DNA of 64,000 nt. Source: Planctomycetota bacterium (GTDB lineage: Bacteria > Planctomycetota > SZUA-567 > H5-PLA8). Position numbers and translations under genes: made by a program. The notes beneath the pieces were generated by a model. That model had not been told where the DNA came from and did not search any database. It was given only the letters and a program-made list of their open reading frames with translations. The stretch's first letter is position 1, and each line of letters opens with the position of its first letter. The stretch spans positions 51,726 through 115,725 of the forward strand of contig JAKLKQ010000006.1 in assembly GCA_023150555.1 (NCBI GenBank), written 5' to 3'. Shown here one piece after another: positions 9,596 to 63,812 of this stretch.

Positions 9596-9624
9596 GCTGC
9601 GCAGGCGCGCTACGGACGGGATAG

Positions 9625-32964: not shown

Positions 32965-34239
32965 TCACTTGGCTTCGTTGTACTCGATGCCCTTCTTGCC
33001 AGCCTGAGCCTTGAGCATCTTCATCACCTCGCCGTCGAAGCTCTTGTCGCCGCTGCCCTTCTTGGCCAACTCATCCTTGATGAATTCGGCGCGCTTCTTG
33101 CCCAGATCCTCGATCTTGGCCTGGATCTCCTTGCGCTCGGCGGCCTTCTTTTCCAGGAACGCCTTGCGCTCCTCTTCGCTCATCTTCTGCATCTCGTCCG
33201 GCAGTTCCTCGGCCTTGGTGTTGGCCAGCGCCTTTTCTCCGCCGGCTTCGAAAGCAGCCACCAGGTCGGCTTTGCCGACTTCGCCGCCCAGGCCCATGCC
33301 GGCCATCTCGGCCGGGGGCGCACCGCTGGGACCGGCGGCAGCGGGAGCGGCGGCGCTGGTCTTGGCGCGGAATTCGCTCTTGTCGGCGGCGACGGCCAGC
33401 TTGGCGCCGTCCCCACCCTCAGCCGCATCCTTGGCTTCGGCCTCGGCCTTGCGGGCTGCGCCGCGGGCCATTTCACGCCGCTTGGCGTCGCCGTAGTAGA
33501 CACCGGTGCCGACCAGCTTGCCGGACAACTCGGCCATCTCCTTGTCGTAGGGCGTCGCCACGACCTGCACCCCGCCGCTCTGTGCGATCGACGTGTAGCT
33601 GCCTTCGGCCTTGGCGGCGATTTCCTTCCAGGTCGTTTCGGTCTCGGCGTTGCCGCCGCAGCGGACCGTGTTGATGACGATGTCCTTCAGCACGGCGGCC
33701 TTGCAGAGTTCCGGGTACTTGGTGTCGTCGGTGTAGTCCATGTGCGGCGGCGCGTCGCCGACCAGGAAGATCACGCGGTAGACCTTCTCGCCCTTCGGCG
33801 ACCAGCCGATGCGATTGACCGCATCGCCCAGGCCCTGGTTGACGGACTCGGGCGTGTCGCCGCCGCCCTTGGCGCTGAGCGCGAAGAGCTTCTGGTGGAT
33901 CTCGTCCAGGTTCGCGGTGAGGTCCGTCACCTGCGTGACGTACTCTTCCTTCTTGTCGCGGTAGGCGACCAGGCCCACCTTCACCTCGGGCACCGGCTTG
34001 CCGCTGACGATGCCGTTGACGATGCTCCAGATCTTCTGCTGCGCGCCGGCGATCAGGCCGGACATGCTGCCGGTGGTGTCGATCACAAAGACGACCTCGA
34101 CGCGCGCGCGGGCGGCCGGTGCGTCGGGTTTCTTGCCGCCGTCGGCCAGCAGGTCTGCGGCGGATGCGGTGAAGGTGCAGAAGGCAGCGAGCGCCAAAAG
34201 CGCGGCCAGCTTGGGAAGGGTCTTCGTCTTCGCGTACAT
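32965..34239 (-). CDS. Secreted von Willebrand factor type A (vWA) domain protein with a Lys/Glu/Ala-rich helical C-terminus
   Basis: Signal peptide, plus a MIDAS motif VVFVIDTTGSMSG with downstream T and D residues. Confidence 0.75.
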   Translation of the reverse strand: MYAKTKTLPKLAALLALAAFCTFTASAADLLADGGKKPDAPAARARVEVVFVIDTTGSMSGLIAGAQQKIWSIVNGIVSGKPVPEVKVGLVAYRDKKEEYVTQVTDLTANLDEIHQKLFALSAKGGGDTPESVNQGLGDAVNRIGWSPKGEKVYRVIFLVGDAPPHMDYTDDTKYPELCKAAVLKDIVINTVRCGGNAETETTWKEIAAKAEGSYTSIAQSGGVQVVATPYDKEMAELSGKLVGTGVYYGDAKRREMARGAARKAEAEAKDAAEGGDGAKLAVAADKSEFRAKTSAAAPAAAGPSGAPPAEMAGMGLGGEVGKADLVAAFEAGGEKALANTKAEELPDEMQKMSEEERKAFLEKKAAERKEIQAKIEDLGKKRAEFIKDELAKKGSGDKSFDGEVMKMLKAQAGKKGIEYNEAK

Positions 34240-34265: not shown

Positions 34266-36839
34266 TTACTTGGCCTTCGGTGCGCCGGCGTCGCCGGTCT
34301 TGGCCGGTTCGATCTGGTACGCCTGGCCATCGACGACGACCAGGATGGTGCCGCCCAGCGCCATGACTGCGCCGAGCTTCGGATTCTTGGTCAGGAGCTG
34401 GAAGTACTCCTTGCTGAAGGTCTCGATCTTCTTCGGCTCGGCCTTCTCGTCGTGCTTGAACGTCGAGTCGATCCAGACGCCGTGGCGCAGGTAGAAGGTG
34501 TGCCCGGCGGCGTGCTTGATGGTCAGTTCCTGCGCGACGGCGACTGCGTCGGCCATTTCTTCGGCCTTTTCGCCGTTCTCGGCACCGGGCTCGCCGGCCG
34601 GTCCGAAGTTTCCGTTGCCGCCGGCCAGGAAGGCCTGGTTGCGCAGGCGGCGCGCGGCCTCGGCGTTCTTGTCCCTCTTCCCGTCGGCAGCCAATTCGAG
34701 CCCCGCATCGGCGTTGGGGTCGATGCTCTTGGCTTCCTTGAAGCGCTCCTCGAACTCGCTCAGGCCCACCGCCACGCCGCCGGACTGTCTGGTCTGCGCA
34801 GCCTGGGCGGCCATCTTCGCCACGTCCTTGGCTTCGCCTTCGGCGTCGGACATGGCCTTGGTGGCTTCTTCCGGTTTGGCAGCCGGGGCGGCGGCGGCAA
34901 GGCGATCGGCCATGTCCTTGCGCAAGGCCTCCCTGCGTTCCGCGCCCTTCAGGTTCGCGCGGTCGTCGCCGCGAAAGTGTCCGCCGCCCAGCATGATGCC
35001 GGGCTGCATGCCGGGTTCGAGCACCAACTGGCTGGTATAAGGCGTCACGATGCCGTGCTGCTGGCTCAGGGCGACGATCTCGTCGATGGTCTCCTTGTTG
35101 GCGCCGTGCAGGCGCACGTCTTCAAGCAGGTGGCCGATCTTGCGCATGGCCCAGACGCGCGGCAGGAAGGCGTTGTCGGTCTCCTTGTCGGGCCAGGCGA
35201 CGCTGACGCTGATGGTGCGCTGTTCGCCGCCGATGTAGCCGGTAAGCGTGACGGGGCCCGAGCCGGCGCCCTTGTAGCGGCCGAAGGCAAGGATCTCGCT
35301 GCCCTTGAACAACGCCGGGATACGGCGCGGATACATGCTGTGCGCGCGGGCGTCCGGGCCGAAGTCGAAGGCCAGGTCGGTCATGACCGGGTTCTTGATC
35401 TTGCCGTAGAAGTCGCTGAGCTTCAGCTCCAGGTCTTCCTTCATCGCGACGTAGCTGCTGGCGCCGTCGTAGTCGGCAGCGATCTTGTCGAGCAGGTGCG
35501 TGTTGACGTCGGTGCCGACGCCGAAGTTGAAGATGCGCGCGCCGTGCGCGTTGGCGCCGGCGACGTCCTTCAGGATCTCCGGGATGTCGGTGATGCCGAC
35601 GCTGGGCAGGCCGTCGGTGAGGAAGATGACGAGCTTGGCCTTGCCCTTGCCTTCGGAGAAGTCGTTGGCGAGCGCCTCGCGCAGGGCGCCGTCGATGTTC
35701 GTGCCGCCGGTGGCTTCCAGCAATTCGACGGCCTTGATCGCCTTGCCGACGTTCTCTTTGGTCGCATCGAGCAGTTTCTGCGGGCTGAGCGTGCGGACGT
35801 CGGTGGAGAACGTGACGAGGTTGAAGCGGTCCTTCTCATTGAGCTGCCCCAGGCAGAAGGTAAGGGCCTTCTGCGCCTGGACCATTTTGTTCTCCTGCAA
35901 CATGCTGCCGCTGGTGTCGAGGACGAAGACGATCTCCTTGGGCAGGATGCGCGCCTTGGCCAGCTCGTCGTCGGGGCGGCCCACGAGCATGAAATAGCCG
36001 TCCTCGTCGGAGTTCGGGCGGTGCGCGATCACGCGCAGCGCGACGTCTTCGGTGCTGGGCGCGTAGTACAGGTTGAAGTCGCGATCGCTGGACAGGTTCG
36101 CCTGCGACAGTTTCACCACCGCGGTGTGCTCGTCGGGGCGCGTCACCGTGACGGTGTGGCTGGGGCTGTAGACCGGACCGATGCTGTCCTTGCTGCGGAT
36201 CACGCACTCGAAGCTGAACGACTCGAGGCCCGCCGGGTACAGCTGGCTGCCGGCCAGGATGTGGCGGAAGTCGTAGAGGCCGTTGACCGGCGCGAGCACG
36301 GTGTCGTAAGTGAACTTCAGGCGCCGCTCCTCGTTCGGCGGCACGGGGAAGATGCGCGCTTCGTACAGGTTCTCGCCGACGAAGCGCAGCAGCGCCGGGT
36401 CCCGGCGCTGCTGGACGATCGAGGTATAGATGCGTTCGGCTTCCTCGGCGGTGTGCAGGTTGCCGGTGACCATCGTGTCGTTCATCGAGAGCGCCGACTT
36501 GTTGATCGTCGCGCCCTTGGGCAGTGGGATCATCACGCGCACTTCCAGATTGCCGCCGGTCAGGTTCAAAAAGCTCTGCTCGATGGTGGTGCTCGCGACG
36601 TTCTCCTGGATGCGCACGTCCACGCGGCTGCTCGTCACGCGGAAGGGCAGGTCGCCGGGCTGCGGCGGGCGAATGGGGCGCCAGCCGGGCGGCATCGGCG
36701 CAATCGCCGCGACCTTTGCGACCGCTTCGTCCCTTTCGACGGGCACCAGCAGCCCCGACGCGTGCGCCGGGCCGGTGACCGCCAGCGCCAGGAGCGTGAT
36801 CGCCGAAAGAACCAGGAACTCGAATCGTCCGAACTTCAT
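34266..36839 (-). CDS. Secreted VIT (vault protein inter-alpha-trypsin) + vWA domain protein
   Basis: Signal peptide MKFGRFEFLVLSAITLLALAVTGPAHA, an N-terminal VIT-like domain, and a vWA MIDAS motif IVFVLDTSGSM. About 857 aa. Confidence 0.75.
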   Translation of the reverse strand: MKFGRFEFLVLSAITLLALAVTGPAHASGLLVPVERDEAVAKVAAIAPMPPGWRPIRPPQPGDLPFRVTSSRVDVRIQENVASTTIEQSFLNLTGGNLEVRVMIPLPKGATINKSALSMNDTMVTGNLHTAEEAERIYTSIVQQRRDPALLRFVGENLYEARIFPVPPNEERRLKFTYDTVLAPVNGLYDFRHILAGSQLYPAGLESFSFECVIRSKDSIGPVYSPSHTVTVTRPDEHTAVVKLSQANLSSDRDFNLYYAPSTEDVALRVIAHRPNSDEDGYFMLVGRPDDELAKARILPKEIVFVLDTSGSMLQENKMVQAQKALTFCLGQLNEKDRFNLVTFSTDVRTLSPQKLLDATKENVGKAIKAVELLEATGGTNIDGALREALANDFSEGKGKAKLVIFLTDGLPSVGITDIPEILKDVAGANAHGARIFNFGVGTDVNTHLLDKIAADYDGASSYVAMKEDLELKLSDFYGKIKNPVMTDLAFDFGPDARAHSMYPRRIPALFKGSEILAFGRYKGAGSGPVTLTGYIGGEQRTISVSVAWPDKETDNAFLPRVWAMRKIGHLLEDVRLHGANKETIDEIVALSQQHGIVTPYTSQLVLEPGMQPGIMLGGGHFRGDDRANLKGAERREALRKDMADRLAAAAPAAKPEEATKAMSDAEGEAKDVAKMAAQAAQTRQSGGVAVGLSEFEERFKEAKSIDPNADAGLELAADGKRDKNAEAARRLRNQAFLAGGNGNFGPAGEPGAENGEKAEEMADAVAVAQELTIKHAAGHTFYLRHGVWIDSTFKHDEKAEPKKIETFSKEYFQLLTKNPKLGAVMALGGTILVVVDGQAYQIEPAKTGDAGAPKAK

Positions 36840-37771
36840 GATGGATACCTCCAGGTCTCGTGCCGTCTTCTTCGCCCGATTCGACGCGATCCGTGCGTGG
36901 CGGTTTCGGTGAATCCCGGAATTCACGGAGACTACGTACACAAAGGAGGCGCGTGCTATTTAGTAGTGTATTAGGATATGGAATCCACCGGGACTAGGTC
37001 GCACTTCTCATGTAACTTGTTTATAGTAAATTACTTATAGTACCAGGCTCTGCCGGTTCGCCGAAAAGTCCACGCCTTTCGCCGACAATCCCAGCCATCC
37101 CCCGTTCGAGCTTGACCGGCCGATGCTACAAACGGAATGCCGGCTGAGCCGACGTCAGAAAGAAGGGAGAAAAGCCCGTGACAAACGCGCATGCGCGCCT
37201 TGGCCTTGCCTTGGCGATTCTCACGTTGTCCGCCGCGGCGAACTCGAACTCGGCGAAGACATAAAGGAAGGACGCTGGGTCGTCGCCGAACGCCACGAGA
37301 AGGCGCCGGTGGACGGCGTGCTGCAGACCCGCTTGAGGTGCATGCTTGTCGTGCGGACCGAGTCCGGCCACCTGAAGCCCATCCCGAACGCGGAGATCGA
37401 TCACGTCCGCTTGATCTATCCGAACGACGTGATGGTCGAGACCGCGCGCGTCCGAAGCTCTTCGGCGAGCGCCGTAGGTCCTCACAAATCTCCGAATTGT
37501 CATCCTTGCGCCGGAACGCATTCCGGCCTCTAAAGGCACCGGTTTTGCCTTGAAACAGCACTGCGCATGGCGCAATTTTTCTCGCTTCCGGGGCGCACAA
37601 TGTGCTTTCCCCGCAAATGCAGCTTTCGAGCGAATTTCACGTCCGTTTAGAGGGACCGGAAGGAACTTTGGTGTAAGAACAGAGTGTATAAAACGTTGCT
37701 AATAGAGAGGTTGCCTTCGCGTCGAAAGTCCGGCTTGTCAGCCCGAAAGCCGCAGCATTAGGAGCCGCACC

Positions 37772-43283: not shown

Positions 43284-46200
43284 CTACTTGCCGCTTAACG
43301 CCTTGGCTTTCTTCGCAAGGTCGATGAACTCGGCGCGCTGGCCTTCCGCGTCGGCGCCCTTGCTCTCGCCGGCCAGCTCCAGCACGAAGTCCCAGTTCAA
43401 ATTCTTCGCGTAGACGCTGCCGCGCAGCAGCATGCCGAAGGCGGCGACCGAGGACGCGAAGCGGAAGTCCGGGCTGCTCTGTTCGAGCTTCTTTCCGCCG
43501 TCGCGCACCGGGACGCTCAGTTCCGTGCTCTTGTCTTCCTCGGGCTGCTTGTAGCGCAGCCACACGGTCAGCAGCTCGCCGCTGGTCTTCGCGTCTTCCT
43601 TGACCTTGGCTTCCTCGAGGTACCGCGACGCGCGTTCGGCGGGCGCCTTGGGCGCGGCCAGCTCGGCAAGTTTGACGGTGCGCTTGACCGTCGTCTTGAT
43701 CACGTTCGCGTCGGCGACGGCGCTGACTTCGAACTCGTACTCGCCGTCGGCCGTGGGCAGGAAGTACGCGTTCGGGCGGTCGGCGTCGCGCAGGTCGGCC
43801 TTGGGGCCGCCCGTCTGCTTCCAGATGAAGGTCAGCTTCGCGACTTCTTCGGGCTTGGCGTTCAGCAGCAGCACGTCCAGAGGCACGCGCACGGGCTGCA
43901 CGGCTTCCTCGGTGCCGGCTGGAATCACCTCATACAGCGCGGTGACGGCGTGGCCCGCGCCGATCTCGCCGGCGTCCTTCGTGTCGTCGGCGAAGTCTTC
44001 CTTGCGCATCAGGCGGTTCTCGTAGCCGATCAGGCGGTAACTGTGCGCCGTCGCGGGATTGAATTCGACCTGCACCTTCACGTCCTTGGCGATGGTCACC
44101 AGCGTGCCGGCCAGCTCCTGCCCGAAGACCTTCTTCGCTTCCTGGAACGAGTCGATGTACGCGTAATGGCCGTTGCCCTTGTCGGCGATGGCTTCGAGCT
44201 TGTCGTCCTTATAGTTGCCCATGCCGAAGCCGAGCACGCTCAGGAAGACACCGCTCTTGGCCTGTTTCTCGATCAGCTTCACCAGTTCGTCGTTGCTGGT
44301 GGTGCCGACGTTGAAGTCGCCGTCGGTGCAGAGGATCACGCGGTTGGTGCCGCCGGCAATGTGGTTCTTCGCCGCGATCGCGTAGGCCTTCTGGATTCCG
44401 TCGCCGCCATTGGTGCTGCCGCCGGCGTTCAGCGCGTTGATGCGTTCGAGGATGCGGCGCTTCTGGTCGCAGGGCGTGCTCTCCAGCTCGACCTTGATCG
44501 TGTCGCTGTAGGTCACGATGGCAACGCGGTCGCGGGCGTTGAGGTTGTCGACGAGCAGGTTCAGGCCCTGGCGCACGAGGTCCAGCTTGTTCGCGTCGCC
44601 CATCGAGCCGCTGACGTCGACGAGGAAGACCAGGTTGCTGCTGGGTCGGCTGTTCGGATCGATCTCGCGGCCCTTCAAGGCGATGCGTACCAGGCGGTGC
44701 GCGGCGTTCCACGGGCAGGTGGCGACCTCGATGTGCGTGGCGAAGGGCTCCTTCGCGTCGCTGGGCGGCGGCTCGTACGCATAGCGGAAGTAGTTGATCA
44801 ACTCCTCGTAGCGCACCGCGCCGAGCGGCGGAAGCTGGTTGTCGTTTAGCCAGCGGCGCACGTTCGAGTACGACGCGGTGTCCACGTCGATGGAGAAGGT
44901 GCTGATCGTGCGGGCCTTCTCGAAGGGATTCTCGTTCACCACCGCGTAGGATTCGGTCTGGCGGCCTTCGTCGGGGTGCGGTGCAACGTAGCCCATGCGC
45001 CCGTGGTCGAACTCGCCGTCGACGCCCAGCAGCGCGAGGCCGCCGTCCTTGAACGCGCCGCCGATGCGGTAGTCGTCAAGGGAGCTCATCATATCGCTGA
45101 AGCGCCCGCCGATGCGCGTGAGGCGCCACCTGTCGTTGTTTTGTCCGCGCGCGGGATCCGCCGCGTTGAAGTGCCAGATGACCATCCCGCCGGGCGCTTC
45201 CGGTGCGGGCGTTGCAGGCGAGCGAGCGCCGGACCATTCGCCGCGGGTCCACAGTCCGCGCGTCGAGCCGCGGTCGGCCCAGAGGTTGTCGGTCAAGCGG
45301 TAGCCGGTGGCGACGTAGAAATCGCTAACAGCGGAAATTTCTTCGAGCACGCCAGCCGGATGATACGCGCGGAACTGGTCGGCCCAGTGCTGCTGCGTCG
45401 AACGGTATCCGGTGTCGAAGTTGAATCCTTGAAAATTGAAGTCGTGATGCGGGGTGACGCCGTGGTACTGCGCGTAGGCGTCTTCAATCGAAACCTTTGA
45501 CACCGAAAGGAAGTAATCTGGCGACGGCAGACCGTGAAGCGAATGAGGAACGATCTCTTGGTGCCGCGAACTACCGCGCGTATTACGCCAAGCATCTTCC
45601 TTGCTCATCAGTCCATAGGCGACGGCCCAATTGGCGTTGTTGATATCACGCGCATTGTACCAGCGGTCGCGGATGCCTTCCTCGCCGATGATCACGCTGT
45701 CGGCGATTCGTTTCTGCGTCTCCATATCAAACCTAAGCTGCCCGCGGCGGATGGCGAAGCCGTCGTTGTCTTCCTGCGGGGCATACACATCGTTGAGATT
45801 GATGCCGCTGTCCCGCGAAATGCCTACGGCAACGTTGTCGTTCTGGATGGTGTAGAACCACGTCTGCACCAGCCCGCCCATGGTGAGCTTGCCTTCTTTC
45901 GTCGTCACGCCGGCGTTGGGGCCATACTTGTCCTCGACGACAGTGTCAGCGGAGCCGATGGACGCAACGGCAGGAGCGTTCGTCTTCTGTTCTTTGGCCA
46001 ATTGCTCGCGCAGCTGCCTTAAATCTTCGCGAAGCTGCCTGATCTCTGCGGTCTCCGAGTTTTCGCCACCTTGTATTGTTGGGGCCTTTTTTACCGTCTC
46101 TTTCTTCTGTGCAATCTGGCCTTCAAGCTTCGCGATTTCGGTCTTGATTATCCCCTCGGGACTCGTGATTTCCCAGACCGGAAAGCCCTTTTCGAGGATG

Positions 46201-47618
46201 CCGGGCTTCGGCGCGTCGGTCGTCTTCTTCGTCTCCGCGATCTCGGCCTCGGGCTTCGCGTCGGCGGTGGCCGTCGAGTCTGCAAGCGGCGGGCCCGGTC
46301 GGCGCGAAGCATCGCCGTAGCGAATGCCAAGATCCAGTTGTCTGAAGCTACCGTCGGACCTGGACGCCACTTCGCGCGAAAGACCTTGGATCAATTGGGG
46401 ATGCTCTGCCCAACGGTACCAACCACTGGCAATTGCGGCCTCCGTGCGCTCCGGGGGAGGCGGCGGTCCTGGCGAATACGTCAGCTCAGGCGAGGCCGGA
46501 TGATACGGCGCAACCGGATCCGCTTCTTCCTCCAGCCGCTCCTTACCCAATTCTTCGTTCATCAGGTGCCAGGTGCCTTCGATGGTGTTCGGCGAACTGT
46601 TAATCTGAAGATCAACCGCATCCTCGGTCCTGTATTTCTCCGGCGCCCAAGCGAGCGACGTCTGAAGCCGCTCCTCGCCGATCTTCAGATTCTCGTCCGT
46701 AACTCGGTCGACTTCTTCGAGAAGCTCGGAGATCTTTTGGTTGTGGCGCTGGATTACCGCGGCGCGCGGCGCGACGGCAGTCTCCATGTTCACTTCCGCG
46801 CCCATCCAGCCCGCACCGCTACTGGTCCCGCCTGAACTGGACGTGGCGCTGCCGCTGCCCGGCTGGGCGTCTGCGGCATCCGTTACAGAGGCAATAAAGG
46901 CCCCCAGCTTCTCATGCTGCACACTCAGGTTCTCCTGGACGTCGGCCGACAAATTCGCATCGTTGTGTACGCCGTCGATAGTGATGCCGTTGCCCGCCTT
47001 GAACTTCCCGATCTGAAATTCGAGCGCGGTGTCCAGGTCCAAAGTATTCGACGCGGCCTGGTCTTGCGCCGGCGTCGGCATGTCCACCGCAACGGACGAG
47101 GACGGACTCATCTGTCCGTACGAAGCCACCAGCAGGCCCACCAGCACGGAGATGACCAGCGTCGCGGCGACGGCGCCGAGCGCGAAGTAGCGCCGGAAGG
47201 GTGACGGCGCGGGCCGCGTGGCTTCCCGCGCGCGGCGCCCGCTGCCGGCGGCGGCGTGCGGTTTTTCCGATACGGTGCTTACGGTTTGTGTAGGAGCTTC
47301 GTCCTCGAATGCGGCGGCCATGAGGGCTTCGGCGCTCAGAGCACTGGCTAGCCGGCCGCCTTTCACCGAGGAGGACTCCGTGGCGCCCAGCCCAACGCAG
47401 AGCGTTTCGCCCGTCGCGCGCAGGTCTTCGACGTACTGGCGCAGTTCGGGGTCGCGCGCGATCGCTCCGGCGATGGCCGCGATGCTTTCCTCGTCGAGCG
47501 CCTCGAGTTCGCCCAGCGCGTAGGCGGTGACGCGCGGGTCGTCCCGCCAGCCGCCGTTCGCGGCTTCGGCGCCGTTCTTCCAGGCGATCGTTTCGTTGTT
47601 CTGGTCGTGCTCGCTCAT
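43284..47618 (-). CDS. Giant anti-sigma-factor::YfbK-type vWA fusion protein (1444 aa)
   Basis: N-terminal anti-sigma-like cytoplasmic domain (RVTAYALGELEALDEESIAAIAGAIARDPELRQYVEDL), one TM helix, a large periplasmic region, and a C-terminal vWA (LVFLVDVSGSMGD) + DUF3520-like module as in YfbK. It starts 27 bp after the ECF sigma gene. Confidence 0.75.
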   Translation of the reverse strand: MSEHDQNNETIAWKNGAEAANGGWRDDPRVTAYALGELEALDEESIAAIAGAIARDPELRQYVEDLRATGETLCVGLGATESSSVKGGRLASALSAEALMAAAFEDEAPTQTVSTVSEKPHAAAGSGRRAREATRPAPSPFRRYFALGAVAATLVISVLVGLLVASYGQMSPSSSVAVDMPTPAQDQAASNTLDLDTALEFQIGKFKAGNGITIDGVHNDANLSADVQENLSVQHEKLGAFIASVTDAADAQPGSGSATSSSGGTSSGAGWMGAEVNMETAVAPRAAVIQRHNQKISELLEEVDRVTDENLKIGEERLQTSLAWAPEKYRTEDAVDLQINSSPNTIEGTWHLMNEELGKERLEEEADPVAPYHPASPELTYSPGPPPPPERTEAAIASGWYRWAEHPQLIQGLSREVASRSDGSFRQLDLGIRYGDASRRPGPPLADSTATADAKPEAEIAETKKTTDAPKPGILEKGFPVWEITSPEGIIKTEIAKLEGQIAQKKETVKKAPTIQGGENSETAEIRQLREDLRQLREQLAKEQKTNAPAVASIGSADTVVEDKYGPNAGVTTKEGKLTMGGLVQTWFYTIQNDNVAVGISRDSGINLNDVYAPQEDNDGFAIRRGQLRFDMETQKRIADSVIIGEEGIRDRWYNARDINNANWAVAYGLMSKEDAWRNTRGSSRHQEIVPHSLHGLPSPDYFLSVSKVSIEDAYAQYHGVTPHHDFNFQGFNFDTGYRSTQQHWADQFRAYHPAGVLEEISAVSDFYVATGYRLTDNLWADRGSTRGLWTRGEWSGARSPATPAPEAPGGMVIWHFNAADPARGQNNDRWRLTRIGGRFSDMMSSLDDYRIGGAFKDGGLALLGVDGEFDHGRMGYVAPHPDEGRQTESYAVVNENPFEKARTISTFSIDVDTASYSNVRRWLNDNQLPPLGAVRYEELINYFRYAYEPPPSDAKEPFATHIEVATCPWNAAHRLVRIALKGREIDPNSRPSSNLVFLVDVSGSMGDANKLDLVRQGLNLLVDNLNARDRVAIVTYSDTIKVELESTPCDQKRRILERINALNAGGSTNGGDGIQKAYAIAAKNHIAGGTNRVILCTDGDFNVGTTSNDELVKLIEKQAKSGVFLSVLGFGMGNYKDDKLEAIADKGNGHYAYIDSFQEAKKVFGQELAGTLVTIAKDVKVQVEFNPATAHSYRLIGYENRLMRKEDFADDTKDAGEIGAGHAVTALYEVIPAGTEEAVQPVRVPLDVLLLNAKPEEVAKLTFIWKQTGGPKADLRDADRPNAYFLPTADGEYEFEVSAVADANVIKTTVKRTVKLAELAAPKAPAERASRYLEEAKVKEDAKTSGELLTVWLRYKQPEEDKSTELSVPVRDGGKKLEQSSPDFRFASSVAAFGMLLRGSVYAKNLNWDFVLELAGESKGADAEGQRAEFIDLAKKAKALSGK

Positions 47619-47645
47619 CGTCTTGCTCCGGCTTTCGGCGCCTGC

Positions 47646-48266
47646 TTACGCGCGCGCCGCGTTGCTCTCTCCGTCCTCCGCTACGCGCCGCGCTGCCATG
47701 CGTCCCGAATTATCCGTCGAATTCGCATCGAAATTCGCCGCTTCCTTCGCGCCGTCCGCCTTCATTTCCGTGCGCATCGCCTGCATGGCCTTGTGAAGGA
47801 GGAAGCCGACGTTGGTGACGCTGCGCCCGGTGACGCGCGCGATCTCGCGGTAGCTCAGGCCGTGCTGGAACTTCAGCCGCACCACTTCCTGCTGCAGCGC
47901 AGGCAATTTGACGAGCGCCTCGCGCATGCGCGCGCCGTCTTCGCGGTGCTCGGCGAGGGCGTTCGGTTCGGGCGTGAGGGCTTCCTTCTGCGCGAGCGCC
48001 ACTGAGGCGCTGCGCAGCCGGCGGTCCTTGCGGTGGGCGTCGATGGCGCGGCTGCGGCAGACGGTGTAGAGGCGTTCGCGGAGGTTGCCGTTCAGCGAAC
48101 CGGGGTCCTGGCGGCAGAGCCAGAGGAAGGTCTCCTGCACGGCGTCGCGCGCGCGGTCGGGATCGCCGGTCAGGCGCTGGGCGTAGTGCTCCAGCGGCCC
48201 CCCGAAGCGTTCGAGGGCCTCGCCGACCCAGCGGGTCGCATCGGCCTGGCTATCCACCGCGCTCAT
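47646..48266 (-). CDS. ECF RNA polymerase sigma factor
   Basis: Sigma70 region 2 (ERFGGPLEHYAQRLTGDPDRARDAVQETFLWL) and region 4 (LQQEVVRLKFQHGLSYREIARVTGRSVTNVGFLLHKAM). The track ORF extends to 48320. Confidence 0.8.
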   Translation of the reverse strand: MSAVDSQADATRWVGEALERFGGPLEHYAQRLTGDPDRARDAVQETFLWLCRQDPGSLNGNLRERLYTVCRSRAIDAHRKDRRLRSASVALAQKEALTPEPNALAEHREDGARMREALVKLPALQQEVVRLKFQHGLSYREIARVTGRSVTNVGFLLHKAMQAMRTEMKADGAKEAANFDANSTDNSGRMAARRVAEDGESNAARA

Positions 48267-48394
48267 TTCGATTCGCTCGGGCTCCGCTCCCCTGCGCCCG
48301 CCACCGCTTTCGCCCCCCACTACGGATGAGAGCGACTTTTCTTAGCGCCTCCGGACCGAATTCCGAGAATTCCGGCGTCGCGAAAGGCTTGCCA

Positions 48395-48551: not shown

Positions 48552-48878
48552 TTACGCGTCGCCGCTCGCCAGCTTTACGCGGACCTCGCGCACGGCCAAC
48601 CCGGCGGCGCGGAAGGCGTCGAGCAGTTCTTGGCGGCGGTAGCCTTCGAGTTCCTGAAAGAGCGCCGCGCTGTCGGCTTCGACGGTCACGACGCCGGTCT
48701 TGACACTCAGCACGTCGGCGTGCGGCGCGAGTTTCTCGCCGAGGATCTCGGCGAGGACCTTGCGCGCGAGGCGGCGGCCCTGGAGCTGGCGCTTGCCCAG
48801 GCCTTCCTTGCGCACGACGCCCTTAAGGATGTCGCCGAGGCCCTGCGCGGGAGCGGGTTTCTTGCGTTCGCTGGCCAT
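48552..48878 (-). CDS. dciA: DUF721 / DciA-like small protein
   Basis: About 108 aa with GLGDILKG...LAPHADVLSVKTGVVTVEADSAALFQELEGYRRQELLDAF, matching the DUF721 pattern. Same operon as dnaN. The upstream Arg-rich part of the 48552..49307 track ORF is rejected. Confidence 0.55.
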   Translation of the reverse strand: MASERKKPAPAQGLGDILKGVVRKEGLGKRQLQGRRLARKVLAEILGEKLAPHADVLSVKTGVVTVEADSAALFQELEGYRRQELLDAFRAAGLAVREVRVKLASGDA

Positions 48879-48888
48879 GCGCGTGCGC

Positions 48889-50025
48889 CTACCGGACCGA
48901 GAACTCCTGCGTGCTGGACGGCACCACCTGCCATACCTGGATGCTCTCGTCCTGCCCGCCGCTGGCGACGCGCGTGCCGTCGGAGCTGAACGCCAGCGCG
49001 GTGACCCAGCCGATGTGGGGCTCGAGCGTGAAGCGGCAGCCGCCGCTGGCGGTGTCCCACGCCTGGATCTGGCGCAGGCTGCCGGCGAGTACGAACTTGC
49101 CGTCGGGCGTAAAGGCCAGCGCCGTGACGCGCACCTTCGCGCCCTTGAGTTCGAACGCGACGCCCTTCTTCGCGACGCTCCAGAGCTGAAAAATGGGCTG
49201 CTGCCCGCCCACGGCGAGGAAGCGGCCGTCGCCCGAGTACGCCAGCGCCGCGATGCCCGGGCCGCCGTCCTTGAAGTTCGGCGCAGCCTGGCAGAGCACC
49301 TGCCCATCGGCGAGCGTCACGACCGCGAAGGCTTCGGTCGCGTCGCCGATGCCCATGCCGGGGTTGATGGCGTGCAGGGCGGCGGACTTCCCGTCGTGCG
49401 ACGGCAGGATCGCGCTCACGGCGGGCAAAGGCAGCGCGCAGGCGTGCAGGGGTTTGCCCGTGGCGGCGGCGAGCACGCGCAGCTGCTTGGGCACGGCCAG
49501 CACCAGGGCCTGGCCGCCGGGCGAGTAGGCGCCCAGCGTGGCGCCGCTGCAGTCGAAGCCCGGCACCGCAGTCTTGGAGGCTACGTCGAGCAGTTCGGCC
49601 TTGCGCCCCAGCAGGTCGACCAGCAGCAGGCGCTTGCCGTCGGGCGAGAGCGCGCCGCTTTTGCCGGAGAACTCGCCGGCCAATTTGGGTTCGGCGCCGG
49701 GGCTTTTGGGCAGCTCCCAGACCTTCACGTGCCCGCCGCCGGCGCTGAGCAACCGCGGCGAGGCCGCGGCGAACTGCAGGCGCTCGACGCCCTTGCCGTG
49801 CTTGAATACGTAGCCGCCTCCCTTGGGTGCGGCGGGCGCGGCTGCCTTGGGCGCGCCGGACGCCTTGGACGGCTGCGCGGTTTCGAGGGCGGCGTTATCG
49901 GTCTTCAGGCTGGCTTTGGAATCGCTCTTGGCGGGCGCCTTGGGCATTCCGCCGCCGCCGGCCGCGAAGTAGAAGATGCCGCCGATGGCCAGCGCCACCG
50001 CCGCGAGCAAAATGGCCGTGCGCAT
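48889..50025 (-). CDS. WD40-repeat protein with N-terminal membrane anchor
   Basis: TM helix TAILLAAVALAIGGIFYF, an Ala/Pro/Lys-rich linker, then repeated beta-propeller blades (GHVKVWEL, QIQAWDT, SIQVWQV). Confidence 0.7.
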   Translation of the reverse strand: MRTAILLAAVALAIGGIFYFAAGGGGMPKAPAKSDSKASLKTDNAALETAQPSKASGAPKAAAPAAPKGGGYVFKHGKGVERLQFAAASPRLLSAGGGHVKVWELPKSPGAEPKLAGEFSGKSGALSPDGKRLLLVDLLGRKAELLDVASKTAVPGFDCSGATLGAYSPGGQALVLAVPKQLRVLAAATGKPLHACALPLPAVSAILPSHDGKSAALHAINPGMGIGDATEAFAVVTLADGQVLCQAAPNFKDGGPGIAALAYSGDGRFLAVGGQQPIFQLWSVAKKGVAFELKGAKVRVTALAFTPDGKFVLAGSLRQIQAWDTASGGCRFTLEPHIGWVTALAFSSDGTRVASGGQDESIQVWQVVPSSTQEFSVR

Positions 50026-50038
50026 GGCCGCCGCCGCG

Positions 50039-51148
50039 CTAGTCCTTCCCGCTGACGGGCATCAGGACGTAGAGGTAGTCGGTGCCTTCGCGGATCACGC
50101 CGGGGCGCGCGCCGTCCTTCATCTCGATGCGCACGGTCTCGGCGTCGAGGGCCTTCAGACAGTCCTGCACGAACTGCGGGTTGAATCCGATGGTCAGGGC
50201 CTCGCCTTCGTATTCGACCTCGACGGTGACGGCGGCGACGCCCTTGTCGGGGCTGCGCGCCTCGATCAGGCACGTGCCGGGGCTGAAGGTCATGTTGACG
50301 GTGCGGGTGTCGTCGCTGGTTAGGAAGACGGCCTTGCGCAGGGCGTGCTGCATGGCCTCGCGCTTGAAGGTGGCTTCGTGGTCGCTGTCCTTCGGGATGA
50401 CCTGCTGGTACTTGGGGAAGATGCCTTCGACAAGCAGGCTGCTGAGCGTCACGTCGCCGCCTCGCACCAGGAAGTTGCGCCCGCGCACGGCCAGTTCGAC
50501 GTTCTCGCCTTCGGCGATCGGATCGCAGAGCTTGCGTACTTCCTGCATCATCTTGACGGGCACGATCACGCCGTCTTCCAGCGTTCCGCTGCCCTTCAGC
50601 TTGCGCTTGCAGTAGGCCAGGCGGCGGCCGTCGGTAGCGACGACTTCCAGCGTCTTGTCCTTGAACTGCATGTACACGCCGTTGATCGCGAAGCGGCCCT
50701 GTTCGCGCGCGGCGGCAAAGAGCGTGCGGTCAATGATGCGGGCGATCTCGCTGGCGGGCACCGGCAGCGTGGCGCCGTCGCCCAGGTCCGGAACGTCCGG
50801 GAAGTCGCTCGACTCCTGCCCGACGATCTCGAAGCGGTCGCGCCCGACGGTAAGGATGCCCTTGGCGCCCTCGGTCTCCAGCGTGACCACGTCCTCGGTG
50901 CATTCCTTTAGCAGGCCGGCCAGCGTGGTGCAGGGCAGGCACAGCGAGGCGGGATTCTTGACGGACTCGGCCTTGAGCTTGTAGCGCAGGCCCACTTCCA
51001 GGTCCGTGGCCTGGATCTCGAGGTTGCCGTCTTTGTCGGCGACCAGCAGCGCATTCTTGAGATTCTGGCGCACGCCGCGCAGCGGGACGACGGCGGCGGC
51101 CGCCGAAAGAGCAGCGGTGAAGGGTTCGCGCTTGACGACGAGTTTCAT
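50039..51148 (-). CDS. dnaN: DNA polymerase III beta subunit (sliding clamp)
   Basis: About 370 aa. The start MKLVVKREPF and a three-domain beta-clamp pattern (LEIQATDLEVGLRY, FAINGVYMQFKDKTLEVVATDGRRLA, IGFNPQFVQDCLKAL). Confidence 0.85.
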   Translation of the reverse strand: MKLVVKREPFTAALSAAAAVVPLRGVRQNLKNALLVADKDGNLEIQATDLEVGLRYKLKAESVKNPASLCLPCTTLAGLLKECTEDVVTLETEGAKGILTVGRDRFEIVGQESSDFPDVPDLGDGATLPVPASEIARIIDRTLFAAAREQGRFAINGVYMQFKDKTLEVVATDGRRLAYCKRKLKGSGTLEDGVIVPVKMMQEVRKLCDPIAEGENVELAVRGRNFLVRGGDVTLSSLLVEGIFPKYQQVIPKDSDHEATFKREAMQHALRKAVFLTSDDTRTVNMTFSPGTCLIEARSPDKGVAAVTVEVEYEGEALTIGFNPQFVQDCLKALDAETVRIEMKDGARPGVIREGTDYLYVLMPVSGKD

Positions 51149-51909
51149 GGCTTGCTTCTCCTTAACGCCGTCGCTGTTCATACGCAAGCTTGGGCGGTTT
51201 CTTGATCTTGTCCGTGCTGTTCTTGCCGTTCCTTTATAGTAATTAATCTATTCCCTCTTACCTCTTATAGGGCCGCTCCGGATGTGGATAAGTCCGTCGG
51301 CTTCGAGGCAAGCGGTTCATGCCAAAGGAATTGTACCTTTCAACCTCACCCGGTGCACATGTGAAAAGAGCCGGGGCCTTCTTCGCGCCGACTGTTCATC
51401 CCGGAGAACAATCCACACGGCCCTTTTCGCGCGCGCGCGGGAAGATATTGGAGCCGGCGTGAAGCCGGACACCAGCGCTTGCGTTCGCGGGGCTTTCCAC
51501 GGCTGCGAAAGCCCCAACGCCCAAGCGCGCCTGGGCGTGGACGAATCTGGAAAAGAGCAGAGGCTTTCCCGAACTCTTCCACGGCCTGCATCGCGTCCGC
51601 AGCATTCGTTCCGCCGCCGATCCTTCCGCGATTCACGGGTTTTCAACAGCGCCAAATGGCGCGCATGTCGAAGATCCCGGCGTGCTGCGCTCAACGGCAC
51701 GGGCAGTCTATGCCAAACAAGGCTCGGGTCAAAGTCTTTAGGGTAAGAAACGTCAGCTATAAGGGCTAAGGAGCAAACGGTTTTAGGGCTTCCGATGCAC
51801 CATGTTCCGTGCTACTCTAAAGGCTGCACTTCGGCGGGATTACCGAAAAATAGGGGCCTAAAAGCGTTCGCCGCGACGTCTATGGAGAGGCTTTAAGGAC
51901 GAAGCCGCA
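51149..51909. other. Candidate chromosomal replication origin region (oriC) upstream of dnaN
   Basis: A 760-bp non-coding gap with a perfect DnaA box TGTGGATAA (51283-51291), a weaker box cAATCCACA (51409-51417), and an AT-rich stretch CCTTTATAGTAATTAATCTATT (51231-51252). Confidence 0.35.
51283..51291. promoter_or_regulatory. Perfect DnaA box (TTATCCACA, on the complementary strand)
   Basis: An exact 9-mer consensus 30 bp from an AT-rich tract, upstream of dnaN. Confidence 0.45.
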
Positions 51910-53533: not shown

Positions 53534-54490
53534 TCAGCTCCACGCCGCGCGCAATCCATCAAACAGCGCCGCGAAGGCGCGCGACTCCTCCGTGCCCGAG
53601 CGGTAGACGACGCCGAACGAGAGCGCCCCGCCTTTCAGCCGCTCGCTGACGTCGAAGGCCACGGTGTTCGGTTCGCGCGGCAGCGCGGCTTCGGTCTCCT
53701 CGGTATCGTTGCGCTTTGCTTTCCCGTCCTTCGCATTCTTCGTCCAATGCAGGTACGGCACGAAGGCCGGCGCCACGCCCTGCCGCACCAGCGCGCGCAT
53801 CGTCTGCGCGAAGGTCACTTCCGCCGCGATCTTCAGGCGCCCACCGGCTTCCTGCAGCAGGCGTTCGGTCAGCACGCGCCCCGGCGAGTCGCCCTCGTAG
53901 GCGATCAGCCCGTGCGGCGCCAGTTCCTGCGGCGTGGGCTTGCGCCCCAGCGCCGCCAGCGGGTGGTTGCGCGGCACCAGCAGCGCAGCGCCGATGCGCC
54001 CCAGCGGCTTCCAGTTCAGGCCCGGCGGGCCTTTCAGCAGCAGCACCAGCCCCGCGTCGGCGTGCCCGCTGCGCACGCGTTCGACGATCTCCGCCGTGGC
54101 GAGTTCCTCGACGCGGACCACCAGGCCCGGGCACTTCTTCTGCGCGTGCCGCAGCGCCGGCGGCAGCGCTTCCATCGCCAGGAACTGGTCCGACGCGAGC
54201 ACCAGCGGCGCGGCGCCGCCGGTCGCGACGCGTTCCAGCACCTTCGGCAGGCCCTCGAAGAACGGCGCGACGAACGCGAACAGCGCGCGGCCTTCGGGCG
54301 TCAGCTCGGTGCGCCGCGGCCCCGCCTGCCGCACCAGCGCCACGCCCAGGGCCTCCTGCAGGCCCTTCACCTGCTGGTAGACCGCCGGCTGCCCGATGGG
54401 GTACGGGAAGGCCTGCGCCGCCTTCGTGTAGCCGCCCTCGCGCGCGACGTGAAAGAAGCCTTCGAGCTGGTGGATGCGGACGTCGGGCAT
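53534..54490 (-). CDS. LysR-family transcriptional regulator
   Basis: N-terminal HTH (IHQLEGFFHVAREGGYTKAAQAF...QVKGLQEALGVALV) and a LysR substrate-binding domain. Confidence 0.8.
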   Translation of the reverse strand: MPDVRIHQLEGFFHVAREGGYTKAAQAFPYPIGQPAVYQQVKGLQEALGVALVRQAGPRRTELTPEGRALFAFVAPFFEGLPKVLERVATGGAAPLVLASDQFLAMEALPPALRHAQKKCPGLVVRVEELATAEIVERVRSGHADAGLVLLLKGPPGLNWKPLGRIGAALLVPRNHPLAALGRKPTPQELAPHGLIAYEGDSPGRVLTERLLQEAGGRLKIAAEVTFAQTMRALVRQGVAPAFVPYLHWTKNAKDGKAKRNDTEETEAALPREPNTVAFDVSERLKGGALSFGVVYRSGTEESRAFAALFDGLRAAWS

Positions 54491-54514
54491 GGCCGGTTCT
54501 CCTATCAACTGCAT

Positions 54515-54532
54515 TGATACTACTTTTAATCA
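54515..54532. promoter_or_regulatory. LysR-type box TGAT-N10-ATCA in the divergent promoter region
   Basis: An inverted-repeat T-N11-A motif 25 bp upstream of the LysR start, inside an AT-rich 127-bp divergent region. Confidence 0.4.
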
Positions 54533-60737: not shown

Positions 60738-63700
60738 ATGAACGCGAACGAAGGCAGTCCCGGCGCGAGCACCCCTTCCGAGCGCCCCCTTATAAAGGAG
60801 GCGGCCCCGTCTGCGCCCGGCGCTCTCGCGGCGCGCGGCTGGCTGCGCGGCCTGGTCGAGTACCTGGCGCAGACGCGCTGGTGGGCGGTGGCCGCGGCCT
60901 TCCACGTGCTGCTGCTGGCGCTCTCCGGCGTTGTGGCGATGGTCGCGCTGCCGTACTTTGGCCAGGGCGAAACGTACAGCACGCTCTCCCTCGTCCATCC
61001 CCCGGCGCCCGAGTACGACGAGAAGCCCGCGCGCGACGTCTTCCTGAAGCCCATGCCGGTCGACGCGAACAGCGCACCCATCGAGAACCCCATGGTCACG
61101 CACGAGACCATCGAGTTCGGCGACCACAGCGAGACCGAGGTCTCGAACAGCTTCGACACGCAGATGCTGCGCGGAGCGGCAGGCATGAGCGACATGCCGA
61201 TGGGCGGCAGCGGCACCGTTGCGGCCATCGGCTTCGGCGGCGGCGGGGGCGGCGCGTACGGCTGCTCAAGCTACGCCGGTGCCGGCGGACGCCGGCGCCT
61301 GGCCATGCGCGGCGGCGGCGCATTGGCGACGACCGAGCGCGAACGCCGCGCGTATGCCGTCGATCCGCGCGTCGCGGCCGCGGTGCGCTGGCTGGCGCAG
61401 AACCAGGACGCCGACGGCGGCTGGGACTGCAAGGCCTTCGGCGGCAAGGAGCACGACGTCGCGGTCACCGGCATGGCGCTGCTCGCGTTCCTCAGCGCCG
61501 GCAGTACCGAGATGGAAGGCCCCTACCGCGACCAGGTCCGCCGCGCGGTTACGTACCTCAAGCAGCACCAGCTCCCCGATGGGCGGCTCGCCGGAGCCGG
61601 CGGCGAAGGCGATGGCTACGCGCACGCAATCGCGGGGATGAGCCTGGCCGAGGCCGCGGGCCAGGGCCGCGTCAGCGATACGATCCGCGCCGCGCAGCAG
61701 GCCGCCTTCTGGAGTGCCGCGCTGCCGGACGTGCCGGACGCCGCGTGGCGTTACCGCGGGCCGGGAGGTGAGGGCGACCTCTCCGTCACCGGCTGGTACG
61801 TCCTGCAGCTCGACGCCGCGCGCGCCAACGGCCTGCGGGTCTCAGACCATGCGCTCGACCAGGCCCGCGCGTTCCTCGACCGCGTGTCGGTGAAGGAGAA
61901 GGGCGCGGCTGCCACGAAATATCTTTACAGACCCGGCGGCAAGGAGAGCGTGCGCCTGGACGCCATCGGCGCGGCCTGTGACCTGCTGCTGGGCGACGGG
62001 CGCAGCCCCGCGCACGGCCTGCGCGCGCTGCCCGACGCGCGCACGCCCGATCTGTACTACTGGTACTACGGCACGCTGGCCGCGTTCCAGGCCGGCGGGC
62101 ATCCGTGGAAGCAGTGGCACGGCGCGCTGTACCGCACGCTGGCCAGCACGCAGCGGCGGGGCGGCGCGGAGACCGGAAGCTGGGACCCCGCGGGCGACTA
62201 CGCCGACCACTGGGGCCGCGTGGGCCAGACCGCGCTGAGCGCCCTGTGCCTGAACGTCTACAACCGCAACCTGCCCGCCGCGCCCGACAGCACCGCCGGC
62301 CTGGCGCCGGCCCCCGCGCCCGAACCCAAGCCGCAGGCGCTCGAGAACCCGCAGGATGCCGTCGATCCGGTCGCGAACACCGAAAGCTACGATCCGATCG
62401 ACGAAGCGACCTTCACGAAGGTCATCGGCGCCGACGCGCTCTCGACCTTCGACATCGACGTCGACACCGCGTCGTACTCGAACGTGCGCCGCTTCATCCA
62501 GGGCGGGGACCTGCCGCCCGCCGGCGCGGTCCGCATCGAGGAGCTGGTCAACTACTTCGACTACGATTACCGGGCGCCGGACAACGGCGACGCCTTCGCC
62601 GTGCGCACGGAGATCAACGAGTGCCCGTGGAGCCCCGCGCACCGCCTGGCCCTGGTGGCGCTGAAGGGCCGCGAACTCGAACGAGCGAAGCCCGAGGCGC
62701 GGCCGTCGAGCAACCTCGTTTTCCTCGTCGACGTCAGCGGCTCGATGAGCGCCGACAACAAGCTGCCGCTGGTGCAGCAGGGCCTGCGCCTATTGGTCGA
62801 CAACCTCAACGCGAAGGACCGCGTCGCCATCGTCACCTACGCCGGCCACGCGGGCGTGGCGCTGGAGAGCACGCCCTGCGGCGACAAGCGCGGCATTCTG
62901 AACGCGATCAACAGCCTGGGCGCCGGCGGCGGCACCAACGGCGCGCAGGGCATCCTGACCGCGTACGAACTGGCGAAGAAGGGCTTCATCCCCGGCGGCG
63001 CCAACCGCGTGATCCTGTGCACCGACGGAGACTTCAACGTCGGCGTCACCAGCCGCGACGAGCTGCTGGACCTGATCAAGGAGCAGGCGAGGAGCAACGT
63101 CTTTTTGACCGTGCTGGGCTTCGGCATGGGCAACTACAAGGACAGCACGCTCGAACTGCTCGCCGACAAGGGCAACGGCACCTACGGCTACATCGACACC
63201 TTTACGGAGGCGAAGAAGGTTTTCCAGAACGATCTCGACGCGACGCTGGTCACCATCGCCAAGGACGTGAAGATCCAGGTCGAGTTCAACCCCGCCAAGG
63301 TCGCCGCCTACCGCCTGATCGGCTACGAGAACCGCGTGATGGCCGCCAAGGACTTCCGCGACGACACCAAGGACGGCGGCGAGATCGGCGCCGGCCACCG
63401 CGTCACCGCGCTGTACGAGCTGATTCCCTTTGGCGACCCGGGCGCCTCCGCCGTGCGCGGCGCCGGCCCGCTGAAGTACCAGGAAACCGCCAAGTCCAGC
63501 GCCGCCGCGCAGAACGGAGAACTCTTCACCGTCTACCTGCGCCACAAGCAGCCCGAAGGCGATTCGGCCACCGAGCGCGACGTCGCGGTGCGCGACGCGG
63601 GACTCGGGTGGAAGGACGCTAGCGCCAACCTGCGCTGGGCCAGCGCGGTGGCCATGTTCGGCTTCCAGTTGCGCGGCAGCGCGCACAAGGGCCGCACCGG

Positions 63701-63812
63701 CTGGGACCTGATCGAGAAGACCGCCGCGGACGCCAAGGGCAAGGACGAGCTGGGCTACCGCGCCGAATTCCTGGACCTGGTTGCGAAGGCCCGCGCGCTG
63801 CCGAAGCGCTGA
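60738..63812 (+). CDS. Membrane-anchored prenyltransferase/terpene-cyclase-like alpha-toroid repeat + YfbK-type vWA/DUF3520 protein (true start probably ~60870-60940)
   Basis: TM helix VAAAFHVLLLALSGVVAMVALPYF, repeat motifs QNQDADGGWD / KQHQLPDGRLAG, and a C-terminal ~480 aa about 65% identical to the C-terminus of the 43284-47618 protein (LVFLVDVSGSMSAD MIDAS). Confidence 0.75.
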   Translation: MNANEGSPGASTPSERPLIKEAAPSAPGALAARGWLRGLVEYLAQTRWWAVAAAFHVLLLALSGVVAMVALPYFGQGETYSTLSLVHPPAPEYDEKPARDVFLKPMPVDANSAPIENPMVTHETIEFGDHSETEVSNSFDTQMLRGAAGMSDMPMGGSGTVAAIGFGGGGGGAYGCSSYAGAGGRRRLAMRGGGALATTERERRAYAVDPRVAAAVRWLAQNQDADGGWDCKAFGGKEHDVAVTGMALLAFLSAGSTEMEGPYRDQVRRAVTYLKQHQLPDGRLAGAGGEGDGYAHAIAGMSLAEAAGQGRVSDTIRAAQQAAFWSAALPDVPDAAWRYRGPGGEGDLSVTGWYVLQLDAARANGLRVSDHALDQARAFLDRVSVKEKGAAATKYLYRPGGKESVRLDAIGAACDLLLGDGRSPAHGLRALPDARTPDLYYWYYGTLAAFQAGGHPWKQWHGALYRTLASTQRRGGAETGSWDPAGDYADHWGRVGQTALSALCLNVYNRNLPAAPDSTAGLAPAPAPEPKPQALENPQDAVDPVANTESYDPIDEATFTKVIGADALSTFDIDVDTASYSNVRRFIQGGDLPPAGAVRIEELVNYFDYDYRAPDNGDAFAVRTEINECPWSPAHRLALVALKGRELERAKPEARPSSNLVFLVDVSGSMSADNKLPLVQQGLRLLVDNLNAKDRVAIVTYAGHAGVALESTPCGDKRGILNAINSLGAGGGTNGAQGILTAYELAKKGFIPGGANRVILCTDGDFNVGVTSRDELLDLIKEQARSNVFLTVLGFGMGNYKDSTLELLADKGNGTYGYIDTFTEAKKVFQNDLDATLVTIAKDVKIQVEFNPAKVAAYRLIGYENRVMAAKDFRDDTKDGGEIGAGHRVTALYELIPFGDPGASAVRGAGPLKYQETAKSSAAAQNGELFTVYLRHKQPEGDSATERDVAVRDAGLGWKDASANLRWASAVAMFGFQLRGSAHKGRTGWDLIEKTAADAKGKDELGYRAEFLDLVAKARALPKR
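60783..60804. promoter_or_regulatory. Second copy (reverse orientation, 20/21) of the CGCCTCCTTTATAAGGAGGCG palindrome
   Basis: CGCCCCCTTATAAAGGAGGCGG lies inside the annotated 5' end of the vWA ORF. This argues that the real start codon is downstream and that the motif is a promoter/operator. Confidence 0.3.

Follow-up and report, generated by a model that had tools for sequence, protein, structure and literature searches.

The 64,000-nucleotide stretch of the Planctomycetota bacterium contig JAKLKQ010000006.1 analysed here (in the following, the window) carries on its minus strand a gene for an extracytoplasmic function (ECF) sigma factor, followed by a gene for a protein of 1444 amino acids (aa) that joins a predicted anti-sigma domain to a von Willebrand factor A (vWA) head. 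[quoted passage not shown] Homology, topology and synteny all lend good support to the assignment of the N-terminus as a class-I anti-sigma domain, from which binding of the sigma factor would be expected.

Sigma factor gene and downstream reading frame

The smaller protein is an ECF sigma factor (sigma-70 group 4). It contains regions 2 and 4 only, with matches to Sigma70_r2 (28.3 bits) and Sigma70_r4_2 (51 bits), and reached 72.6 bits on the TIGR02937 model sigma70-ECF, the cut-off of which is 42.9. The protein also aligned with the sigma factors encoded upstream of homologues of the large protein. Mechanical calling of open reading frames (ORFs) placed the gene at 47646..48320 (-) with a GTG start at 48320. 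The start is most likely the ATG at 48266 instead; the GTG is unlikely to be used because it lies directly against the -10-like element of the candidate promoter (Table 1). The first-pass annotation had ended the sigma gene at 48266, which is exactly this ATG. After region 4, the sigma factor continues with some 35 aa of C-terminal tail (ADGAKEAANFDANSTDNSGRMAARRVAEDGESNAARA, 47646-47750 (-)) that are missing from the four aligned orthologous sigma factors.

The large gene starts 27 nt past the sigma stop codon. This spacing and the length of 1444 aa had been claimed before, and the coordinates of both genes (47646-48266 and 43284-47618) were confirmed. The GC content of the window is 66%, and according to codon-position GC both genes are real and each is read in a single unbroken frame. 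The large ORF is open across 4.3 kb, with the coding pattern of a higher GC content at third than at second codon positions (GC3>GC2) almost throughout. A frameshift within this ORF was considered and rejected, as the codon-position GC profile contains no frame switch. Approximately 144 residues are predicted to be cytoplasmic and approximately 1278 to lie outside, separated by a single transmembrane (TM) helix at aa 145-166, which agrees with the earlier description of one TM helix followed by more than 1200 periplasmic residues.

Table 1. Features of the sigma/anti-sigma::vWA locus and further vWA genes of the window. Positions are those of the window; E values and bit scores refer to profile matches; AF2, AlphaFold2; pLDDT, predicted local distance difference test; MIDAS, metal-ion-dependent adhesion site.
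Feature	Residues (aa)	Position	Strand	Description
Putative autoregulatory ECF-type promoter		48321..48345	(-)	-35-like CTAAGAAAA at 48345-48337; -10-like CCGTA at 48325-48321
ECF sigma factor gene	206 (from ATG 48266)	47646..48266	(-)	Sigma70_r2, Sigma70_r4_2 and TIGR02937 matches
Anti-sigma::vWA gene (predicted)	1444	43284..47618	(-)	ATG at 47618
Predicted zinc-less class-I anti-sigma domain, core	25-77	47388..47546	(-)	DDPRVTAYALGEL...DPELRQYVEDLRAT; leave-one-out family profile, 45 bits
Single TM helix	145-166	47121..47186	(-)	Kyte-Doolittle scan, peak 2.6; Arg-rich stretch before helix, N-terminus inside
Linker 1	167-518	46065..47120	(-)	Low complexity, Pro/Ser/Ala/Glu-rich, helical stretches
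Porin-derived segment	519-728	45435..46064	(-)	Coiled coil and first part of OprO/OprP-type barrel, truncated
Linker 2	729-886	44961..45434	(-)	Gly/Arg/Asp-rich; two short porin strand repeats
vWF_A (PF12450)	887-978	44685..44960	(-)	E 2.6e-33, 114.3 bits
VWA	995-1166	44121..44636	(-)	E 3.6e-22, 79.9 bits; intact MIDAS; AF2 pLDDT 80-95
YfbK_C (DUF3520)	1171-1444	43287..44108	(-)	E 2.7e-66, 223.7 bits, two stretches
77-aa insert in YfbK_C	~1236-1312	43683..43913	(-)	Unique to the 1444-aa protein
Paralogue	1024	60738..63812	(+)	TM helix, prenyltransferase/squalene-cyclase-like repeats, vWF_A/VWA/YfbK_C
VWA_4 protein	424	32965..34239	(-)	Unrelated to the YfbK-type module
VIT+VWA protein	891	34266..36941	(-)	In tandem with the VWA_4 gene; unrelated to the YfbK-type module

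N-terminal domain and its linkage to the sigma gene

Residues 25-77 matched a profile built from 27 further proteins that share the architecture, with an E value of 5.7e-16. In the six-frame translation of the window, the leave-one-out profile of the N-terminus had one significant match, namely the 1444-aa protein. When a profile of all 28 N-termini was compared with the PDB, the top two matches were the anti-sigma factors RslA (3hug_B, E 3.5e-6) and RskA (4nqw_B, E 3.6e-5). Weak matches to zf-HC2 were present in 17 of the 28 family members and matches to RskA_N in ten. The positions of the zinc ligands of RslA (H-x3-C-x2-C) are A/D/L in the family and G-A/D/L in the window protein, which reads AIARDPEL in the aligned region. 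With its zinc ligands replaced, the domain is therefore predicted to be a zinc-less anti-sigma domain and not a zinc-associated anti-sigma (ZAS) protein.

A word-indexed search with the full-length protein found four homologues (P0001-P0004); with aa 1-880 alone it returned none, low-complexity words having swamped the candidates. The four share the N-terminal motif DPRLTAYALGEL...DP.L..V.E.R; behind it come a TM helix, a spacer without conservation and the vWA/YfbK_C part. In all of them, an ECF sigma gene lies immediately upstream. The N-terminal anti-sigma signature was defined as DDPRLTAYALGEL...DP.L..V.E.R, and the TM helix of the homologues is found 77-109 aa downstream of the start of the anti-sigma domain.

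In the first-pass annotation the N-terminus had been called anti-sigma-like, and profile hidden Markov models (HMMs) had been expected to recognise both ends of the protein. This held for the C-terminus, where VWA and DUF3520 scored above the Pfam cut-offs, and failed for the N-terminus, which is missed by zf-HC2 and RskA. Because the curated Pfam models are silent there, the anti-sigma assignment rests on the family profile and on synteny. The anti-sigma-like character of the domain was borne out by the profile matching RslA and RskA, the topology and the conserved position next to a sigma gene.

For the synteny analysis, 80 loci with the vWA module were collected, one genome per species, and the N-terminal motif and the sigma factor were modelled as HMMs. 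The motif occurred in 36 of the 80 vWA-module proteins, the remaining 44 having other N-termini. One motif-bearing locus, the 36th, is situated at a contig end and was excluded from the evaluable set. In each of the other 35, an orthologous ECF sigma gene on the same strand lies directly upstream (103-229 bits), with no more than a few hundred bases between its end and the start of the ORF. A sigma gene was nearby in only 4 of 39 evaluable vWA proteins without the motif, so that motif and sigma gene are strongly associated (Fisher p = 5e-17). The paired loci come from Planctomycetota, Verrucomicrobiota, Acidobacteriota and others. The adjacency that had been noticed in this window is thus kept throughout the evaluable loci, and the anti-sigma::vWA protein pairs obligatorily with one clade of sigma factors. 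Among the four exceptions is L012, a Planctomycetota metagenome-assembled genome, in which the motif is encoded by a separate ORF between the sigma and vWA genes (anti-sigma domain ORF at 9184-9843 (+), 75.6 bits; vWA ORF at 9959-11545 (+)). Either the anti-sigma factor is naturally split in this genome, or the arrangement is due to a frameshift.

The linkage also bears on a different explanation of the gene pair, according to which the large protein is a membrane-anchored vWA adhesin and the main co-transcribed target of the sigma factor, which itself would be controlled otherwise. ECF sigma factors often transcribe the adjoining gene, none of the curated anti-sigma HMMs matches the window protein, and the tail of about 35 aa at the C-terminus of the sigma factor is unusual; all of this would suit an adhesin. 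Such a protein is nonetheless highly improbable here, as its N-terminal profile is homologous to the anti-sigma domains of RslA and RskA and as the TM helix comes at a fixed distance behind a cytoplasmic domain. Moreover, linkage to the sigma gene tracks the N-terminal domain and not the vWA module, the paralogue being without an adjacent sigma gene.

Upstream of the sigma gene, the motif TAAGR-N15-18-CGT (CTAAGAAA...CGT) was found in 17 of 39 loci, the window copy included. By chance, approx. 1 was expected (500 shuffles yielded 5 at most), and 2 were counted in the reverse-strand control. Variants such as TGTAACGAA...CGTTAT are located upstream of the sigma gene in several other loci. Within the window, the copy upstream of the sigma gene is the sole intergenic one. 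The sigma/anti-sigma module looks autoregulated and self-contained, with its regulon elsewhere. Membership of the paralogue at 60738-63812 in the regulon was considered and is unsupported, as motif matches in the window are at chance level.

The mechanism proposed for the anti-sigma module is modelled on the single-pass class-I anti-sigma factors RslA, RskA and RseA, which work by sequestration and regulated proteolysis. In the resting state, the N-terminal domain would sequester the sigma factor at the membrane. The vWA head might then gain or lose a carboxylate-bearing ligand or a partner protein via its metal site, and the changed occupancy of the head would make the periplasmic part more or less stable, most likely via regulated proteolysis. 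Once free, the sigma factor would use the CTAAGAAA-N-CGT promoter to transcribe the operon that encodes it, and would also transcribe a regulon elsewhere.

Spacer, porin-derived segment and alternative explanations

The family members conserve the anti-sigma domain, the TM helix and the head. No similarity was detected among the family in the spacer region, and total lengths range from 538 to 1083 aa. The 1444 aa of the window protein exceed the length of every protein from the 36 motif-bearing loci; P0004 (1561 aa) and P0064 (1646 aa) are longer still. Residues 1-880 were compared exhaustively with 1.84 billion representative proteins by phmmer. Homologues of linker 1 were not found, this part having no Pfam match and sporadic weak matches in the exhaustive search. 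Residues ~520-740, however, matched the mature N-termini, from about residue 25, of proteins of 500-560 aa that belong to the Porin_O_P family, i.e. Planctomycetota OprO/OprP porins with an N-terminal coiled coil. Of the 539 positions of a porin HMM, 25-229 aligned with aa 519-728 (E about 1e-45); the Pfam model Porin_O_P does not score this segment.

Neither the complete barrel nor the signal peptide of an OprO/OprP porin is present in aa 519-728, and the final ~130 porin residues with the terminal beta-signal (...VNFQVAW) are missing. A porin strand motif (TGYR..D..WAD) is repeated twice, at aa 727-751 and 764-785 (window 45250-45440 (-)), and the conserved porin motif GEEGIRD is displaced. 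Repeats and displacement suggest an internal deletion or rearrangement of a captured porin piece. Neither an anti-sigma domain nor a vWA module was combined with the porin segment in any of the 84 other family proteins or in any other search match. Most probably, the porin piece was captured in the variable spacer and is passive. Both the porin piece and the 77-aa insert in YfbK_C are lineage-specific additions outside the core mechanism, and both of their positions vary among members. In other spacers, a stretch of P0001 (aa ~175-250) resembles by eye a secretin/TonB N-terminal (STN)-like domain, P0004 has a faint TPR match and P0064 contains DUF2950, which would point to the acquisition of various periplasmic domains by the spacers.

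Several observations weigh against a functional sigma/anti-sigma module of the kind proposed. Pfam and NCBIfam gave no match on residues 1-880, even at E values of up to 10. The strict promoter motif is absent from 22 of the 39 loci, and no second credible promoter copy was present in the window, where 4 matches compare with 3.9 expected by chance. Beyond close relatives, an all-vs-all BLAST found no conserved neighbour genes in 40 loci. The AF2 model of aa 505-885 (13 sequences) had a pLDDT of 34 and no predicted fold; the coiled coil alone was predicted with confidence. GC3 is 0.62-0.78 in aa 280-760 (~45340-46780 (-)), compared with >0.9 in the head and in neighbour genes. The low GC3 of the spacer is consistent with relaxed constraint or foreign origin, and part of the 1444-aa protein may be evolving nearly neutrally.

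The drop in GC3 and the missing fold in the porin region would also fit a gene that is decaying or has been rearranged, or a chimera of the assembly with a spliced porin fragment, the product of which would be non-functional or partly functional. The segment itself is truncated and rearranged (HMM positions 25-229, duplicated strands, displaced GEEGIRD, no beta-signal), and the combination occurs in no other family member nor among the 1.84 billion representative proteins. Decay of the gene or a chimera is very unlikely all the same. The frame stays open over 4.3 kb with coding-type GC3>GC2 almost throughout, and neither the anti-sigma domain nor the TM helix, MIDAS or YfbK_C is disrupted. The spacer differs in all homologues, so an insertion there need not harm function. 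An independent read assembly reproduced aa 1-321 exactly and ended short of the porin junctions; a chimeric assembly behind the porin segment is unlikely.

It was further considered whether the porin segment was recruited as a dock on outer-membrane porin trimers or on the outer membrane itself, resulting in a bridge from the inner to the outer membrane that reports envelope or porin status to the ECF sigma factor. This is quite improbable, and to our knowledge such a bridging design has not been described for anti-sigma factors. The segment does keep the N-terminal coiled coil and the most conserved strands of the porins with 33-47% identity, and the 350-aa spacer ahead of it would be enough to cross a wide periplasm. 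Insertion into the outer membrane would need the beta-signal, though, which the incomplete barrel lacks, no structure was predicted for the region, and there is no cognate porin gene within the window. As the feature is unique to the 1444-aa protein, it falls outside the mechanism of the family. It is thus extremely unlikely that docking or co-assembly of the coiled coil and strands with an OprO/OprP-type porin trimer informs the sigma factor about the condition of the outer membrane or the porin. The preferred reading remains an anti-sigma factor bound to the membrane, with a probably passive porin piece in its spacer.

The vWA head, its relatives and known systems

At the C-terminus, vWF_A, VWA and YfbK_C follow each other in YfbK-type order, and all three exceeded the Pfam cut-offs. 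The MIDAS residues D1001, S1003, S1005, T1069 and D1099 are present and occupy invariant alignment columns. Pfam matches and metal-site residues together substantiate the vWA(MIDAS)+DUF3520 module that had been proposed for this end of the protein. An AF2 model of the head (aa 881-1444) reached a pLDDT of 73.5 and a predicted template modelling score (pTM) of 0.72. It consists of a Rossmann-like vWA domain, followed by a beta-sandwich and helical elements, and its best matches among solved structures were ArnA/B, an ArnB paralogue, ITIH1 and an actinobacterial vWA protein (4fx5). By sequence, the best match of the head among solved structures was ITIH4. The YfbK_C loop that holds the 77-aa insert has a median length of 3 residues among 86 family modules. 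AF2 predicted strands for the insert with a pLDDT of 50-65, i.e. it is beta-rich at low confidence. The loop is also extended in two proteins from Phycisphaeraceae (L055 and L015), where the inserts are helical and unrelated.

A second copy of the YfbK-type module is encoded in the window by the paralogue. This protein has neither an anti-sigma domain nor an upstream sigma gene. Its TM helix (aa 48-70) and its prenyltransferase-like repeats (SQHop_cyclase_C match at aa 208-294) had been noticed in the first-pass annotation, and both were found. The same annotation had put the identity of the two C-termini at ~65%; pairwise alignment gave 66% over 355 aa, together with 45% over the last 134 aa. 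The count of four vWA proteins in the window was also correct, the other two being the VWA_4 and VIT+VWA proteins at 32965..34239 and 34266..36941. The claimed reuse of the module was upheld insofar as it is shared by the two proteins; a recent duplication is unsupported by an overall identity of only about 61%. A recent intragenomic duplication was rejected as an origin, for the modules are sisters in a rough neighbour-joining tree and yet as distant from each other (~61% identity) as from modules of other phyla. The vWA/YfbK_C module is an old, highly conserved and portable unit. P0064 carries it together with a bona fide zf-HC2 domain and has DUF2950 in the spacer, and in L008 and L034 it follows a different short N-terminal motif, beside a more distant sigma factor (25-46 bits).

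Among the other genes of the window, a second, unrelated ECF sigma gene at 4591-5133 (+) overlaps a gene for a FecR-domain anti-sigma factor at 5130-6512 (+). Directly upstream of the sigma promoter region lies a DciA gene (PF05258) at 48552-48875 (-), which is over-extended by the mechanical ORF 48552-49307; it is preceded by genes for a WD40 protein at 48889-50025 (-) and for dnaN at 50039-51187 (-). Three large ORFs with strong coding GC3 had no Pfam match, namely 54474-59177 (+) with 1567 aa, 13421-16414 (+) with 997 aa and 59310-60626 (+) with 438 aa. Two of these are located directly upstream of the paralogous vWA gene at 60738-63812.

In comparison with known anti-sigma factors, the window protein resembles RslA (partner of SigL in M. 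tuberculosis, 3HUG) and RskA (partner of SigK, 4NQW) in its homologous helical N-terminus, which is predicted to be cytoplasmic, in the one TM helix, the extracytoplasmic C-terminus and the gene next to a sigma gene. It differs from RslA in the replaced zinc ligands, and from both in an extracytoplasmic part of ~1280 aa with a vWA head in place of a small domain. The head has the same three-domain module with MIDAS as the E. coli YfbK-type proteins (PF12450/PF00092/PF12034), with 55-63% identity across phyla, but here it is the C-terminal head of a predicted anti-sigma factor. To the OprO/OprP porins (PF07396), residues 519-728 are 33-47% identical along the mature N-terminus, the coiled coil and the first strands; unlike in the porins, there is no signal peptide at this point, the C-terminal strands are missing and the segment sits inside an inner-membrane-anchored protein. 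ITIH1/4 and archaeal ArnB (Sec23/24-like core) likewise have a MIDAS vWA domain packed on a beta-sandwich, but their identity is 11-25%, their biology is unrelated and they have no link to a sigma factor.

The ECF classification 2.0 (Casas-Pastor et al., NAR 2021, PMC7826278) contains the group ECF289, in which the gene at position +1 encodes an anti-sigma factor given as "DUF3520 fused to von Willebrand factor". The locus described here and the 35 related loci match this group in gene order and Pfam domains, the likeness being one of description. The old group ECF20, from which ECF289 is derived, was reported to be mostly proteobacterial (PMC7671368), whereas the family found here is mostly from Planctomycetota, Verrucomicrobiota and Acidobacteriota. 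An experimental study of any ECF289-type sigma/anti-sigma::vWA member was not found in the literature searched, which yielded the catalogue entry alone. The sigma/anti-sigma::vWA architecture is already catalogued, then, and this locus is mostly confirmatory; unusual are only its porin-derived insert and the insert in YfbK_C.

To the catalogue entry, the analysis adds an N-terminal signature, a quantitative synteny, a candidate promoter and the portability of the head. The candidate promoter CTAAGAAA-N12-15-YCGT could serve for genome-wide prediction of the regulon. The vWA head would act as a portable sensor that is mounted on the anti-sigma domain described here, on zf-HC2 or on N-termini without a detected anti-sigma domain, and the pairing of sigma factor and anti-sigma::vWA protein appears as a widespread signalling module across several phyla.

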